Below, piece after piece: positions 10,923 through 24,643 of a stretch of DNA of 32,000 bases. A program made the position numbers and the translations under genes. Each line of letters opens with the position of its first letter. Position 1 is the first letter of the stretch. This DNA comes from Blochmannia endosymbiont of Camponotus modoc (GTDB taxonomy: Bacteria; Pseudomonadota; Gammaproteobacteria; Enterobacterales; Enterobacteriaceae), in NCBI RefSeq assembly GCF_023585785.1, contig NZ_CP097765.1, positions 600,001 through 632,000 on the forward strand, given 5' to 3'. Below the pieces are notes generated by a model. That model did no database searches, was not told where the DNA came from, and saw only the letters and a list, made by a program, of their open reading frames with translations.

Positions 10923-11920
10923 AATTATTTGTCTCTATATTGAATCAATAACGATAATAAGACTGTATTTGGCAGTATCAGTTAATAATAGTCTAAAAAT
11001 AGTAATTATTATTTTTTGAAGTATTGTTTATTAAGAATAATAACTTTTCAGACAATTGTTTATATCTGATAATTAATTATTTTTTTTAATTAACTATTGC
11101 AGCGTATACCTCCTAATTTATTGTAATTTTACTAAATTAATATTTTGGTTTTATTAAAAAATAGCAGACATTATTAATTCAGAATATATATATTTTAATA
11201 TTTAATTTGTGTTGTTTTACTATTTATATTTTATCGGAGTTTTTTTAAATTTGAAATATGACTATCGGAAAAATAAAACTTCTTATAGTTTTGTTAAAAA
11301 ATAATTTTTTTATATTTTATGATTTATTTTTAATATTAAAATTCTATATATCTGCAAATAAACAGATCCAAATCAAAAATACAACAATTTTATTATAAAA
11401 TATAAAATAATATTTTATATTTTTATGAAAATAAAAATAAAAAATTATATATTTATATTAAAATAATATTTTTTGTTGAATCATATATTCTCGTATACAT
11501 TCACATTTATTTATAAAAAATAATAATATTAAAGGATATATATCAGTTAATTTATAGTAAAATATTAACTATATAAATTTATATAACACTTAAATAAAAC
11601 GGATTTGAGTACAAAAATTATATTAAAAACTTTTTATTAAAAATAATAATATTAAAACCTAATTTTTTAATAAATGAATCTACTTCATATATATGCATGT
11701 ATATAATAGTTATTGTTTATATATGCATATGTCTCTGTAGTTAAAGTTTAAGTGCATTAAATTTCAGTATTCAATATTACGTTTAATTAGATTAGTTGAT
11801 TAAATGAAACATTATTTGATAAGATTATAATATAATTAAGAATTGCAAAAATTATCAGATTATATGACCAATACAGATTTTAAATATGAAAAGATTTTAT
11901 AGGTGGGTACTCTGATTATA

Positions 11921-13994: not shown

Positions 13995-15189
13995 TATAAC
14001 GATTAATAATTTCATTAATAAGTTGTTGTGCTAACAATTTTTTTTTTCTTAAAGGCAATATAACACTTCCTTTATTCCAAAATAGATATAAAGCATTATT
14101 ATCACTATTAAATCCTTGGTTCATACGAGAAATATTATTAGCACAAATTAAATCTAAATGTTTACTAATACGTTTATCTTGAGCATATTTTTTTATATTA
14201 TTAGTTTCAGCGGCAAATCCAACGACATAAGGACGATTTTCAATTAACGACCCTACTTCCGCTACGATATCGGGGTTTTTAATCATAATTATTTTTAAAG
14301 TATTTTTATTCTTTTTAATCTTTTCAAGAGAAACATGACAAATACGATAATCTGATACTGCTGCACAACCGATAAAAATTTGTTGATCACTAATGTCTCT
14401 CATAACTGCTTCTTGCATGTCTAACGCGGAAATAACATTAATACGTTGCACTCGAATAGGAGTACGTAAATTTACTGGACCTGCAATTAATGTAACTTTT
14501 GCTCCTTTATCTGCAGCGGCTTGGGCGATAGCAAATCCCATTTTTCCTGAACTATAATTAGTGAAAAAACGAACGGGATCTAAGGCTTCGTGCGTCGGAC
14601 CGGCAGTAATCATGATATTAAGATGACTTAAAGAACTATCATGAGAAAAGTAATGTTTTACGTATTCAGCAAGTACTTTGGGATCCGTCATGCGTCCATA
14701 ACCAATATCATTACAAGCTTGACATCCATAATCTGGTCCCCATATTAAAACCCCTCTTTTTCGTAGAATATCTAAATTTGTTTGAGTTGCAATAGCTTTA
14801 TACATTTGTTGATTCATGGATGGAGCTACAGCAATAGGAGCTGTTGTAGCTAAACATAAACTACATAATAAATCATTAGCTAATCCCACAGATAATCTAG
14901 CTAATAAATTGGCTGTAGCCGGAGCAAGTAAAACTAAATCAGCCCATTTAGCTAACTTTATATGAGGCATTGTAGTTTCTATTTGAGGGGTAAGAAAATT
15001 GTCCAAAACTGGATGACATGATATTGTTTGCAAACTTAAGGGGGTAACGAATTTTTTTGCAGATTTTGTCATGATCACTCTTACTTCTGAACCTTGTTCT
15101 TTTAAACATCGTACAAGATCTATAGTTTTATATGCCGCGATACCACCGCTTACTCCTAATATGATATGTTTATTAATTAATCCCGTCAT
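13981..15189 (-). CDS. coaBC: Bifunctional phosphopantothenoylcysteine decarboxylase / phosphopantothenate-cysteine ligase
   Basis: From ATG 15189 the product starts [21 protein letters not shown] (E. coli [20 protein letters not shown]). Both halves are conserved: PSMNQQMY and [10 protein letters not shown] in Coa[11 protein letters not shown] and CAAVSDYR in CoaB. The tracked start at 15201 is a GTG 4 codons upstream. The coaBC-dut order matches E. coli dfp-dut. Confidence 0.95.
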
Positions 15190-15201
15190 ATTATATTTCA
15201 C

Positions 15202-15292
15202 ATGATATTGAAGATGATTTAATTTTATTTATACTAACAAAAACTAACAGTTTTTGTTAGTATAAATAAAATTAAATCATCTTCAATATCAT
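15202..15292. repeat. Perfect inverted repeat with 44-bp arms and a 3-nt spacer (91-nt palindromic element)
   Basis: I checked it base by base. Positions 15202-15245 are the exact reverse complement of 15249-15292, giving 44/44 pairs with loop AAC at 15246-15248. The element lies in the divergent coaBC / rpmB spacer and starts 13 nt upstream of coaBC ATG 15189. Confidence 0.97.
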
Positions 15293-15652
15293 TGAATTTC
15301 AGAAAATCTGCAATTACATTGTGCGCAGCATAAAAATCTTATATAATATACCTTAGCCCATTATATATAAAGTAAAAATATATGGGAACATATATAAATA
15401 ATAATAAAAACAAAAATTTAACAACTTAAATCTATTATATTTAGACATATTTGGTGCTATATGAATGTTTAAAATTGTTAATTTTCTTGCGTTTAATAGT
15501 GAAAAATAAAACAACAAATAACAATTATAATATTTTTGGAAATCTTATATTAGGTATTTTAAATAATGTCAAATCTCATAGATTAAAAATCGGAATAAAC
15601 AAAAAATTGTTTTTATTGTTTTGATTATAAATAATTATTCAAACAAAAATTA

Positions 15653-15658
15653 GAGGAG
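15653..15658 (+). promoter_or_regulatory. Shine-Dalgarno sequence of rpmB
   Basis: GAGGAG lies 5 nt upstream of ATG 15664. Confidence 0.6.
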
Positions 15659-15663
15659 AACAT

Positions 15664-15894
15664 ATGGCGCGAGTGTGTCAAGTTACCGGAAAACGTCCTA
15701 TGAACGGAAACAAACGTTCTCACGCAATGAACGCAACGAAGCGTTGGTTTTCACCTAATATTCATTCTCATCGTTTCTGGGTAGCAAGTAAGAAACGCTT
15801 CGTTGCGTTACGATTATCTACTAAGGGGATAAAATTAATTGATAAGTTTGGAATTGAATATTTTTTCACAAAAATATATCCTAAAAATAAATAA
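15664..15894 (+). CDS. rpmB: 50S ribosomal protein L28
   Basis: 76 aa. [40 protein letters not shown] aligns with E. coli L28 [40 protein letters not shown]. Confidence 0.97.
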
Positions 15895-15914
15895 TACTCA
15901 TCGAGAATAATGTA

Positions 15915-16082
15915 ATGGCTAAAGAAAAACGAGAAATAATCCGTTTATTTTCTTCTTCTAAGAATGGACATTTTTATAGTACCACAAAAAACAAACGTAT
16001 TGGCTCTGAAAAAATGACATTAAAAAAATTTGATCCGTTTGCACGAAAACATGTAATATATACAGAAAGTAAGAATAGTTAA
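15915..16082 (+). CDS. rpmG: 50S ribosomal protein L33 (55 aa, below the ORF-track cutoff)
   Basis: Hand translation gives [55 protein letters not shown]. This aligns with E. coli L33 [55 protein letters not shown]. It starts 20 nt after rpmB, matching the rpmB-rpmG operon. Confidence 0.93.
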
Positions 16083-16109
16083 ATAAAGAAAAGATGCAAA
16101 TTCAACGGC

Positions 16110-16165
16110 ATACTACATAAGCCCCACAGCTCAATATGCATTGAGCTGTGGGGCTTATGTAGTAT
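16110..16165. terminator. Long perfect hairpin between convergent rpmG and coaD (candidate bidirectional terminator / RNA 3'-end stabiliser)
   Basis: Positions 16110-16135 pair perfectly with 16140-16165: 26 bp, 11 of them G:C, with loop ATGC. The hairpin starts 28 nt after the rpmG stop and ends 137 nt from the coaD stop. No canonical U-tract follows on either strand. Confidence 0.55.
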
Positions 16166-16301
16166 AAATATCTAAAATACTATGCTACTAAGTCTACATT
16201 TAGCAGTTTATGTTCATATGTTTTTATATAGTGTCAACATAAAAAAATTAAGTCTACACGTATAATATAACTCTTCAAATTTTCGAGTTTTGATTTTTTA
16301 G

Positions 16302-16817
16302 TTAGAGAAACGAAATGTTTTTGCTTTTTTTCTCAGTATTGCGCAGTTTTTCAATAACCTTCTCAGCGATAAAATTAGGTATAAAACGATCTATTCTCCC
16401 CCCATATTGAGCAATTTCTTTCACTAATTTAGAAGAAAGGCATGCCCATATATCTGTAGATATCATAAATATAGTCTCTACTTCATTAGAGAAGTAATTA
16501 TTAATTTTTGCAAGTTGTATTTCATATTCAAAGTCTGATCTAGTTCTGAGGCCACGAATTAAAATATTCACTTGTTTTTTTTTCATCACGTTTATAGTGA
16601 GGTCATTAAACCCAAACACTGTTACATGATCTAACGTTGCAGTTGCTTGCTTTGCAAATATTACGCGTTCTTCAAGACTAAACAAAGGATGTTTTTGCGA
16701 ATTTTCAGCTACCGCTAAAAATATTTTATCAAAAATTTTATGTGCTCTAATAATTATATCCAAATGCCCATAAGTTAATGGATCAAAAGTCCCTGGATAC
16801 ATAGCCTGAATTGTCAT
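16302..16817 (-). CDS. coaD: Phosphopantetheine adenylyltransferase
   Basis: 171 aa. YPGTFDPLTYGHLDII carries the nucleotidyltransferase HxGH motif, and RGLRTRSDFEYEIQLA and SSKLVKEIA are collinear with E. coli CoaD (159 aa). There is a roughly 12-aa lysine-rich C-terminal extension. Confidence 0.95.
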   Translation of the reverse strand: MTIQAMYPGTFDPLTYGHLDIIIRAHKIFDKIFLAVAENSQKHPLFSLEERVIFAKQATATLDHVTVFGFNDLTINVMKKKQVNILIRGLRTRSDFEYEIQLAKINNYFSNEVETIFMISTDIWACLSSKLVKEIAQYGGRIDRFIPNFIAEKVIEKLRNTEKKSKNISFL

Positions 16818-17521
16818 GATATTTTTATAAATTTATGTTTTTGTGAAAATAAAAAGACTATAAAATATGTATATATATTTCAAATATGCTAAACTACATT
16901 TTGTTTATATGAAGATATAATTTTCAGTGAAAATATAGAATGCCAACTTATTAAATAAATCGTATTAGAAAGATTGACGCGAACATAAATAAACTATCAA
17001 AACGTTTTATAAATTAAATTATTTCATACTTATATTTCCATACATAAAAATATTTTTCGTTAACATTTAATACAATATTTATATTAATAATAAAAATACG
17101 ACGATTAGTTGCTACAATGCTACTTAAGTAAGCTAAATAACCATTTCCAGTAATACCTATATCTGCAGCATCATAATAAAAATTTTAAGCATTTCGACTA
17201 TCTTCTACATTAATTCAACATTTTTGTAATTATACATCTCTCCCAAAAAATATAAATAACCTTAATGTTAAATATTTGTTTATATATACATTTACAAGAA
17301 TCACGATAAACATTGTTTTGATTATATGAAAAAATTATATTTTCATTAAAATCATTCTGGGATAACAGCCATGTCTCATTCAACATGTTATAATATATTG
17401 TAGTTTTTAGTCTAATTTTAGGTTATAGTTAATTTAATAAAAAGTTATTTATAAATATTTTAATATTTAATAACAACTGTTATATTAATTTCATAACCAT
17501 TATAAAACATCGTATGACAAG

Positions 17522-18805: not shown

Positions 18806-19988
18806 ATAATATCCCAAAATAATCAGTTATTACATTCATAATGATTAATTTAATCATTTTACATGCATTTAACTATATATCAATATCGCTATGTTTTATA
18901 TAATATATTTTAATAGTCGATATTTATATAAATTTTAAAAAATAATTTATCTGAAAAATTATCTATGTTTCTGCTATTTTTAACAATTATGCTTATAGAG
19001 TATTTTTTTATTTTAAATTAAAAAATAATGAATTCTCATAAATATCCTTTAAAAATTAAACATTGTATTGTATACGATAAAACCATTAATTACTGATTTA
19101 ACATTTTTTGAATAATTTAAATAAATTGTTAATTATGACAATAATTAATGATTAGACAATACTTATAAAAACGATATTTATAACAAATAAATTATAAAAA
19201 CTATAAAATCTGATTAATTTTTATATAACTAAAAACTTAAATTAATCATCCAAACAAACACACATAATATAAGCATATTATTTTTTACATTAATAATTTA
19301 TATTAAAATTAATTATATTACAATATTCACAAATGTGAAAATCTTATAATTTTGTTGGTATAAATAAAATTTATTTATTCAAACTTATAAAAATATATAA
19401 AAATTTATTTTACAAATATATACATGCATCATGTATATAATTATTTTTAATATTAAATAATAATTTAGATGCACAACATAAATAATATTTTTAAAAATCA
19501 AATAATAAGATTAAATTGGAGTATGTACTGTATTCTTTTAGTTTTATCATAATTTATCTATTTCCACCGTAACGTAATGATAGACAACCGGACTACTCAT
19601 TCAGAATTAAATTATGTTAAAAACGATTTTTATTTCTGTAGCTTTAAATATTTTGAAGAATTTATTTTTTCTATGTTAAATATATTTACATTTCGATTTT
19701 AAATTATAAGAAATAATCTATATTAATATCATATAACTATGTATAATGAAATACATATTTCCAATATTGTTTACTGCATTATATTATACATAGATCTTTT
19801 CTGATGCAGTATAAAAGTATGATTACTACGTGTATAATATTTTTTAGTATTGCTGCATAATTACCAGTTACTATATTAATTTTTTTAGATATTATATATA
19901 AATTACGTGTAAAATAAATGTTAATTACTTTATCGGATTTGATTGCAAATTCATGTTATTATATTTCTAATTATATCTTATTATTTTG

Positions 19989-20016
19989 TTTATGCTGATA
20001 AAATTTTATCAGCATA
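19989..20016. repeat. 28-bp perfect palindrome (14-bp arms, no spacer)
   Basis: TTATGCTGATAAAA / TTTTATCAGCATAA; every position 19989-20002 pairs with 20016-20003. It sits in the 1.8-kb gene-free waaA / waaC spacer. Confidence 0.9.
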
Positions 20017-20619
20017 ATAAAACAGTCAATTTATTCGTAAAAAATGAATTTTTAGTAAAATTTCAACAATAAAATTAACAGTATCATGTATTTTAATTGT
20101 AATTTTTTCAAAAAAATAATAAAAATATATTTTTATTTAATCGAAAAATTAATATTTATTATTATTTGAAAGTTTTAATTTTCCTTAAATAATATTAAAT
20201 AGTTAAAATAACAAATACGCACAATGAAAATGTTCAAAAATTTAATATTTGAGAATTATATTCAAGTTTTATACCGATATAATTGTAAGAATATGCTAAT
20301 ACTAACATGATGAAGAAATTTTGGTGTTGTTTGTAAAACAAGCATTCATTCATTAATTAGATCTAATAATTTGAAGTAGTTTATAATTGAATGTTAAATG
20401 ATATTAATTTAAAAATATTGATATTCATCAATAAACAATATAATTTTTTTAGATATTATTCCTTTTATAAGAATACAATTATTTACTTTTAAACCATATA
20501 AACACTATCGTTCCTAACGGGTAGATATCTTTTTATTTATCAAAAAAAAATATCAATTTATAATTAAAGAATTAAAATTAATATAAGGTTTATATGAACA
20601 AGTTTAAGAAAAATGTTTT

Positions 20620-23764: not shown

Positions 23765-23795
23765 ATTTACTATATGCAGTATGCATATAGTAAAT
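23765..23795. repeat. 14-bp perfect inverted repeat with a 3-nt loop
   Basis: Positions 23765-23778 (ATTTACTATATGCA) pair with 23782-23795 (TGCATATAGTAAAT). It lies in the divergent hldD / yibN spacer, about 130 nt upstream of the hldD start. Confidence 0.85.
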
Positions 23796-24205: not shown

Positions 24206-24643
24206 ATGTATATTCAGGAGATAATAGCATTTTTACAACGCCATATAATACTGAGTATTATATGGGTACTTTTGTTAATTGCAGTGTTGTACACTACAAT
24301 TAACAGTTGGTTATTCGGGTCTTCTGAAATATTACGTGATCAAGCAATTTATCTAATAAATAAAAAAAATGCAATAGTAATAGATATTCGTAGTCAAGAT
24401 GATTATCACGCAGGACACATAACAAATAGCATTAATGTTTCAATAGAAGAAATTAAAAACAATAATATTTGTAAATTAAAAAGGTTTAAACAGTATCCAT
24501 TGATTATTGTACACGATAATAATGTGCTGGCGCATTCAATTAAACGACATTTATACAAATTAAAATTTGAAGAAATATATGTACTATATGGCGGGATAGT
24601 TGGCTGGAAATCTGATAATTTTCCTCTTCTATTAAAAAAATAA
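24206..24643 (+). CDS. yibN: Membrane-anchored rhodanese-domain protein YibN
   Basis: 145 aa. MYIQEIIAFLQRHIILSIIWVLLLIAVLYTT aligns with E. coli YibN [29 protein letters not shown], followed by a rhodanese-like domain (...VIDIRSQDDYHAGHITNSINV...). It sits upstream of grxC-secB-gpsA, as in E. coli. Confidence 0.85.
   Translation: MYIQEIIAFLQRHIILSIIWVLLLIAVLYTTINSWLFGSSEILRDQAIYLINKKNAIVIDIRSQDDYHAGHITNSINVSIEEIKNNNICKLKRFKQYPLIIVHDNNVLAHSIKRHLYKLKFEEIYVLYGGIVGWKSDNFPLLLKK

Follow-up and report, generated by a model that had tools for sequence, protein, structure and literature searches.

The perfect 26-bp hairpin that lies between rpmG and coaD in this Blochmannia genome appears, on balance, to be the terminator of the rpmBG operon, ancestrally bidirectional, which would have been kept after the loss of mutM and then lengthened, and held perfect, by template switching. 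Every component of this history has a precedent, and its main value lies in showing cleanly, at the strain level, that mutation and not selection can account for covariation, flipped loops and growing stems in an endosymbiont. Throughout, the window is the whole stretch of 32,000 nucleotides that was analysed, and coordinates refer to it unless another strain is named. The hairpin has the following parts:

16110..16135, no strand: left arm of the 26-bp perfect palindrome, sequence ATACTACATAAGCCCCACAGCTCAAT
16136..16139: loop of 4 nt, ATGC
16140..16165: right arm, exact reverse complement of 16110-16135
16121..16154: core stem-loop of 15 bp, the counterpart of a 13-17 bp stem common to all five strains that carry the hairpin, and presumed to be the original terminator stem
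16155..16165, + strand: segment TTATGTAGTAT, once a T-rich tail (TTATTTATTTT in strains L002 and L003), which pairs with 16110-16120

The original prediction had described a 26-bp perfect pairing of 16110-16135 with 16140-16165 around a 4-nt loop, a GC island in the stem and the lack of a U-tract on either side, and all three descriptions were borne out. The arms are exact reverse complements, and the stem far exceeds what chance would give: across 100 first-order Markov shuffles of the window, no perfect stem was longer than 15 bp, and the longest one per shuffle had a median of 10 bp. Folding gave -46.5 kcal/mol (z = -10.9) for the + strand and -47.4 kcal/mol for the - strand, a very stable structure in either case. 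The GC content of the arms is 42% against 29% for the spacer; nine of the 15 core pairs are GC pairs, and the 12-nt core GCCCCACAGCTC is 9/12 GC in the window, where the closest relative has ACCACACAGCTC. Because the stem changes with respect to that relative (strain L001) are derived in the window and run from AT to GC, the GC island is, in part, a very recent and strain-specific state. A T-tract is absent after the full 26-bp stem on both strands, the sequence 3’ of the stem being AAATATCT, and a consensus terminator scan gave no flag at the window site; the sequence 3’ of the core, TTATGTAG, has 4 T in 8 nt and falls under the threshold of the scan. Variants of the hairpin are present in four other independently deposited assemblies, which rules out an assembly artefact.

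The genes around the hairpin are as follows:

15664..15894, + strand: rpmB (ribosomal protein L28), an ORF in E. coli-like order, first gene of the rpmBG unit ahead of the hairpin; the L001 ortholog matches Pfam Ribosomal_L28
15915..16082, + strand: rpmG (ribosomal protein L33), an ORF with its stop codon at 16080-16082; the ortholog matches Pfam Ribosomal_L33
16302..16817, - strand: coaD (pantetheine-phosphate adenylyltransferase), an ORF convergent with rpmG

The whole rpmG-coaD spacer measures 219 nt, as first reported, and the ORF ends set the hairpin 27 nt past the rpmG stop and 136 nt from the coaD stop, correcting the gaps of 28 and 137 nt given at that time. The CoaD protein is identical to that of CP097758.1, but the window DNA differs from that genome at 0.69% and so belongs to another strain; for the L28 protein of the window there is no record. 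Among named proteins, the closest to CoaD are those of Candidatus Blochmanniella camponoti and of further Blochmannia from Camponotus ants. In E. coli K-12 the gene order is waaA-coaD> <mutM-rpmG-rpmB-yicR dfp-dut>, and the window retains this order minus mutM and yicR, so that the synteny argument for an absent mutM had been right. A tblastn search of the window with the E. coli MutM and YicR proteins returned nothing below E = 0.4, no remnant of either was found in the two spacers, and the only ORFs in the rpmG-coaD spacer, of 20 and 27 aa, lack support. The absence of mutM adds nothing new in itself, as its loss from all Camponotus-associated Blochmannia, with mutY kept, is already published (PMC4389277). 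In all ten further Blochmannia loci compared, rpmG is directly convergent with coaD.

With regard to the features of an intrinsic terminator, the hairpin presents a stable GC-containing stem-loop and adjoins the last gene of its unit. A U-tract directly 3’ of the stem is lacking in the window and in L001, and is found in L002 and L004 (both strands). As for a bidirectional terminator, the flanking genes converge, with rpmG on the + strand and coaD on the - strand, and the hairpin folds on either strand. In E. coli, a hairpin (AACAAAAAACCUCGC-uccg-GCGGGGUUUUUUGUU) lies ~13 nt past the rpmG stop and is terminator-like by the same scan, an assignment that stands on fold and scan only. It shares with the Blochmannia element its position directly downstream of rpmG, facing coaD, and with the L002 and L004 variants the A-rich 5’ flank, the GC-containing stem and the T-rich 3’ flank. 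In contrast to the window, where mutM is missing, the stem has 26 bp and the U-tract is absorbed into it, the E. coli hairpin has a 17-bp stem and a U6 tract and is followed by mutM; the correspondence between the two is positional only, with no demonstrable sequence homology. Ju and colleagues reportedly described, in 2019, bidirectional terminators between convergent genes in E. coli. These have in common with the window a convergent pair, a hairpin encoded on both strands and a tolerated non-canonical look; they are, however, defined by mapped, overlapping 3’ ends, whereas the window hairpin is known from sequence alone, and coaD here has a small hairpin of its own before the large one. In Buchnera, most conserved terminators occupy positions orthologous to E. 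coli terminators, and a retained ancestral terminator thus has a precedent (PMC3164680). Between convergent genes of E. coli, polymerase collisions allow even hairpins unlike intrinsic terminators to position termination (bioRxiv 10.1101/2022.10.23.513370).

Distances over about 6.5 kb gave the tree ((window, L001 at 0.6%), (L002, L003 at 0.5%) at 5.6%), with L004 at ~10% and all other Blochmannia compared at ~24%. The hairpin is confined to these five strains, in which it takes the following forms:

Window: 26-bp stem, loop ATGC, no T-tract, no scan flag
L001: 27-bp stem, loop ATGC, no T-tract, no scan flag
L002 and L003: 17-bp stem (AAACCACACAGCTCAAT, with 7 GC pairs in L002), loop ATGC in L002 and GCAT in L003, tail ATTTATTTTA; L002 flagged by the scan on the rpmG strand
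L004: 13-bp stem (ACACAGTCTCAAT), loop ATAC, T-rich tails GATGTATTTA and CGTTTTGTAA; flagged by the scan on both strands

Alignment with L002 revealed that, on the branch leading to the window and L001, TTATTTATTTT in the right flank was replaced by TTATGTAGTAT, and one T was added to the left arm. Each of the stem-flank changes on this branch adds complementarity, and together they carry the stem from 17 to 26-27 bp, the extension expected of template switching. The over-long stem and the missing U-tract are thus a single derived event, in which the palindrome grew through its own U-tract, and the window and L001 go unflagged because the extension absorbed the former T-tract. The two departures from a standard terminator that had been noted at the outset are real, but they are better explained by this lineage-specific extension than as anomalies. 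Similarly, the bidirectional terminator or 3’-end stem proposed in the original prediction remains the best reading, with scan flags on the rpmG strand of L002 and on both strands of L004, although the window itself is not flagged.

The sequence of events that we favour would begin with a bidirectional intrinsic terminator ending the rpmBG ribosomal-protein operon and facing coaD. Erosion of mutM in the Camponotus-associated Blochmannia would have left this terminator between the convergent rpmG and coaD, and in the lineage of the window its partly complementary A/T-rich flanks would then have turned into a perfect stem, which grew from ~13-17 to 26-27 bp and swallowed the U-tract. The GC-rich 15-bp core, with UUAUGUAGUAU after it on both strands, probably still pauses or terminates RNA polymerase, possibly helped by Rho or by convergent polymerases meeting head-on. 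We infer that 3’ ends form at the hairpin, so that the rpmBG mRNA would end in a stem of great stability. In RNA, a perfect duplex of 26 bp would be a substrate for RNase III, if the organism has this enzyme, and such sensitivity would argue against a simple protection of the 3’ end. For annotation, the locus adds a plausible terminator for rpmBG to a genome in which scans for consensus terminators return next to nothing; scans miss terminators of this kind when the U-tract is hidden in an over-extended stem.

Beyond the five strains, the rpmG-coaD spacer has no hairpin at all in L006, L008, L009, L019 and L020. In L007 (Ca. Blochmannia vicinus) the same spacer contains an unrelated perfect hairpin near coaD, with a 26-bp stem and an 8-nt loop (positions 3515-3574 of L007), and in L005 an unrelated perfect 13-bp hairpin is found near the coaD end (positions 3536-3563 of L005). 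These two cases point to a recurrent, independent formation of palindromes in this spacer. Alignment with the more distant Blochmannia spacers is too poor at ~24% divergence to judge homology with the hairpin. Since the element is limited to five strains, and other Blochmannia have either no hairpin or an unrelated one, a hairpin of this particular sequence is dispensable in the genus.

On the coaD side, folds of the window contained a second, smaller element:

16185..16206, - strand: 7-bp hairpin (CUGCUAA / UUAGUAG) followed by the U-rich CAUAGUAUUUUAGAUAUUU

It lies 17-19 nt from the large hairpin and contains a G.U pair on the coaD strand only, and the homologous site in L002 carries a terminator-like flag on the coaD strand. 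We regard it as a candidate terminator for coaD itself; because this small hairpin with its U-rich tail precedes the large one, coaD transcripts may end before reaching the latter. The homolog in L002 has its wobble at a different position of the stem, a shift that hints at constraint at the RNA level in this small hairpin.

The arms of the large hairpin change together. The window and L001 differ at 142 positions in 20.5 kb (0.69%), and four of these differences fall within the 52 stem nucleotides, where they form two exactly compensated pairs (16121 G/A with 16154 C/T, and 16124 C/A with 16151 G/T). The Poisson probability of at least four differences in 52 nt is 5e-4, and that of four changes forming two compensated pairs is 1.3e-4. 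All four changes, together with one at the neighbouring position 16109, are derived in the window and AT-to-GC. Seen over 6.5 kb, five of the 16 derived substitutions of the window lineage are located at 16109-16154, in or beside the hairpin, all in the AT-to-GC direction, which is opposite to the usual AT mutational bias of endosymbionts; this cluster may be a single complex event copied to the other arm. Elsewhere in the clade, the two arms of L004 have each gained one nucleotide at mirrored places (CAGCTC to CAGTCTC on one side, GAGCTG to GAGACTG on the other), and the loops of L002 and L003, strains only 0.5% apart overall, read ATGC and GCAT, four adjacent changes that amount to an exact reverse complement. 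No G.U or mismatched pair was seen among the ~100 stem pairs of the five strains. Taken together, the palindromes of the window make up 0.8% of the compared sequence, yet they hold 8 of the 142 differences from L001 (P = 3.5e-5).

Template switching is known to create, extend and repair perfect hairpins and to invert their loops (PMC8794818; PMC5941160). All four of its diagnostic footprints, namely multiple compensated changes on one short branch, stem extension, insertion in a stem half and loop inversion, are common to this hairpin, as compared across its five strains, and to the hairpins analysed by Monttinen & Loytynoja (2022, PMC8794818) and Lavi et al. (2018, PMC5941160). The substrates in those studies were rRNA, other RNA genes and short inverted repeats of free-living proteobacteria, whereas here we are dealing with a terminator and spacer palindromes, compared at the strain level in an endosymbiont without recA (PMC4389277). 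The agent that these footprints suggest would be an intramolecular switch of template during DNA replication, in which one arm of a quasi-palindrome is copied onto the other, so that a mutation passes from arm to arm and the loop is sometimes flipped. The stem would then be perfectly Watson-Crick because arm-to-arm copying carries mutations across, and its perfection, with concerted arms and flipped loops, is probably for the most part a phenomenon of the DNA. A comparable case is reportedly provided by the minute inversions associated with hairpins in chloroplast spacers, described by Kelchner and Wendel in 1996. There, as here, loops flip between close relatives and the stem stays intact; the chloroplast differs in being an organelle genome, though one that is comparably reduced, AT-rich and asexual.

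Compensated substitutions are, at the same time, the classical signature of a selected RNA helix, and with a fold this stable on both strands one could suppose that independent compensatory mutations, under selection for RNA pairing alone (as a block to 3’ exonucleases or an RNase III site), have kept the stem perfect, in line with the argument of Williams and Wernegreen that the palindromes of Blochmannia need selection for their maintenance (PMC3017870). We consider this quite improbable. Two fully compensated pairs have accumulated on a branch of ~0.3-0.7%, with no G.U or mismatched intermediate anywhere in the stems; the symmetric 1-nt insertion and the exact loop inversions are single DNA events that selection acting base by base does not lead one to expect; and with drift as strong as it is in these endosymbionts, it seems implausible that selection would act on every one of 26 or 44 AT-rich pairs. 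The locus is accordingly of interest as a clean strain-level example, in an endosymbiont without recA, of loops that flip between near-identical strains and of perfect palindromes that can grow. It also shows that a DNA copying mechanism can yield substitutions of the 'compensatory' kind that usually count as proof of selection on an RNA helix, and it calls for caution: in such genomes, perfect stems and covariation are not proof of RNA function.

Perfect hairpins with stems of 12 bp or more number seven in the window, where 0.17 would be expected; they are unrelated in sequence, and most of them are AT-only. Besides the one at 16110-16165, these are:

2167-2207: perfect AT-rich intergenic palindrome, 18-bp stem
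11397-11423: perfect AT-rich intergenic palindrome, 13-bp stem
15202..15292: perfect palindrome of 91 bp with 44-nt arms, loop AAC, 16% GC, in the former yicR/radC position; the longest of the seven
19990-20017: perfect AT-rich intergenic palindrome, 14-bp stem
23765-23795: perfect AT-rich intergenic palindrome, 14-bp stem
24241-24265: perfect 12-bp stem closed by a 1-nt loop, in the 5’ portion of a rhodanese-domain ORF (24206-24643)

The longest palindrome, 15202-15292, ends ~13 nt upstream of the annotated start of coaBC, that is, in a 5’ or promoter region and not at the 3’ end of a gene. Its loop, AAC in the window, is the exactly inverted GTT in L001; in L004 it shows a mirrored 1-nt deletion, a mirrored substitution and a 45-bp stem, and in L003 it has two one-arm changes that are still uncorrected. 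The single loop nucleotide of the hairpin at 24241-24265, G in the window, is C in L001, a difference that fits either the flip of a 1-nt loop or a simple transversion.

Most of these other palindromes are not at gene 3’ ends; palindromes clearly arise in the DNA of the window without a terminator role. This observation speaks against the terminator reading, as does the degraded T-tract after the core, and it raises the question of whether the hairpin at 16110-16165 is itself a functionless DNA palindrome, a by-product of template switching in the neutral spacer left by the decay of mutM. The excess of unrelated perfect hairpins in the window would fit such an origin, and so would the placement of the longest of them where yicR used to be, directly upstream of coaBC, the absence of the hairpin from other Blochmannia, a stem extension that destroyed the T-tract, the absence of recA (PMC4389277) and the long palindromes already reported for Blochmannia spacers (PMC3017870). 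Against it, the position is exactly that of the E. coli rpmG terminator, the stem and T-tail have terminator geometry in L002 and L004 (in L004 on both strands), and the core has been kept over ~10% divergence with symmetric changes only. The hairpin is moreover set apart from the other palindromes of the window by its GC-rich core, the only one among them, by its place after a stop codon and by its terminator-shaped relatives. We judge a functionless palindrome unlikely, and a terminator reshaped by template switching remains the preferred reading.

Long intergenic palindromes were described in three Blochmannia genomes by Williams & Wernegreen (2010, PMC3017870), who proposed that they are maintained by selection, with roles in transcription control or mRNA stability. 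Their definition called for an intergenic inverted repeat of at least 30 bp with a gap of at most 20 and at most 3 mismatches, and the palindromes they reported measure at least 62 bp in total. With its 44-bp arms, the palindrome at 15202-15292 falls within this definition, whereas the hairpin at 16110-16165 falls outside it, its arms being 26 bp and the next four outward positions mismatched. The palindromes of that study resemble those of the window in genus, intergenic location, near-perfect pairing and unrelated sequences; the difference is that their maintenance was ascribed to selection and that no loop inversions or symmetric changes were reported (PMC3017870). In B. vafer, three unlinked variants occur inside one long palindrome (PMC3268670), and one might speculate that they could be the flip of a 3-nt loop.

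A broader and more tentative possibility is that the perfect palindromes of Blochmannia are self-perpetuating and growing structures. In a genome that lacks recA, and perhaps also the nucleases that process hairpins, template switching would then keep making quasi-palindromes symmetric, extending them and inverting them. If this were so, palindromes could spread over functional signals, here the U-tract of a terminator, they could arise preferentially in the DNA of dead genes such as the mutM and yicR positions, and mixed flip-flop orientations of a loop could exist within a single host. Template switching, and not the selection for RNA structure proposed in 2010, would then be a major and so far undescribed force on endosymbiont intergenic DNA.

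The perfect dyad symmetry of the hairpin, and the presence of palindromes in promoter-containing spacers as well, could also suggest a protein-binding site or a cruciform with a function at the DNA level, such as an operator or an element of recombination or replication. The probability of this seems slight. The sequence is not conserved beyond one small clade, the core has been free to change while its symmetry was kept, and no conserved half-site motif common to the palindromes of the window was seen. We take the hairpin to bear no resemblance to dif, and genomes of this type have very few regulators, both of which argue against a site of this nature.

Even less credence can be given to membership in a dispersed family of REP-like or MITE-like palindromic repeats, a relationship for which the original prediction had suggested looking for further copies. 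The hairpin shares with REP/BIME elements the general character of an extragenic palindrome in a 3’ UTR between convergent genes, but it differs from them in being single-copy, without a family in the searches made. The 12-nt core has no second copy in the 32-kb window beyond the two arms, allowing up to 2 mismatches, and the other palindromes of the window are unrelated to it in sequence. A gapped hairpin pattern with the exact core, run against 185,579 species genomes, matched only eight times, each time in an unrelated taxon (Flavobacterium, Clostridia and others); this negative is weakened, though not voided, by the fact that no Blochmannia was among the matches, possibly because the own stretch was masked or because the species representatives do not include the strain. 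Against 5,426 E. coli genomes, blastn with the element gave no match, and Rfam returned none for the whole window at the gathering threshold. The REP-like reading is thereby largely refuted.

Among the sub-threshold Rfam results, the sRNA GcvB fell short of its gathering threshold of 42, at 31.4 bits, with a match that is antisense to rpmG and driven by the hairpin, and was rejected, as were miRNA precursors, which appeared only below threshold in a permissive scan of 15150-16350 and reflect long hairpins in general. The window yielded no tRNA or tmRNA genes.

Some further features of the locus are worth recording. A 10-nt direct repeat, TAAGTCTACA, occurs at 16189-16198 and 16249-16258 in the rpmG-coaD spacer, 60 nt apart, and neither copy is altered in any of the five strains, L004 at ~10% divergence among them, in the midst of sequence that varies. 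Two gene-free spacers, 16818-17521 (~0.7 kb, between coaD and waaA, which are adjacent in E. coli) and 18818-20619 (~1.8 kb, from waaA to a heptosyltransferase gene), presumably represent eroded genes. Finally, the rpmB coding sequence contains a perfect 16-nt inverted repeat, AACGCAACGAAGCGTT, at 15730-15745 and 15794-15809 with a gap of 48 nt, part of which was flagged as terminator-like on the antisense strand.
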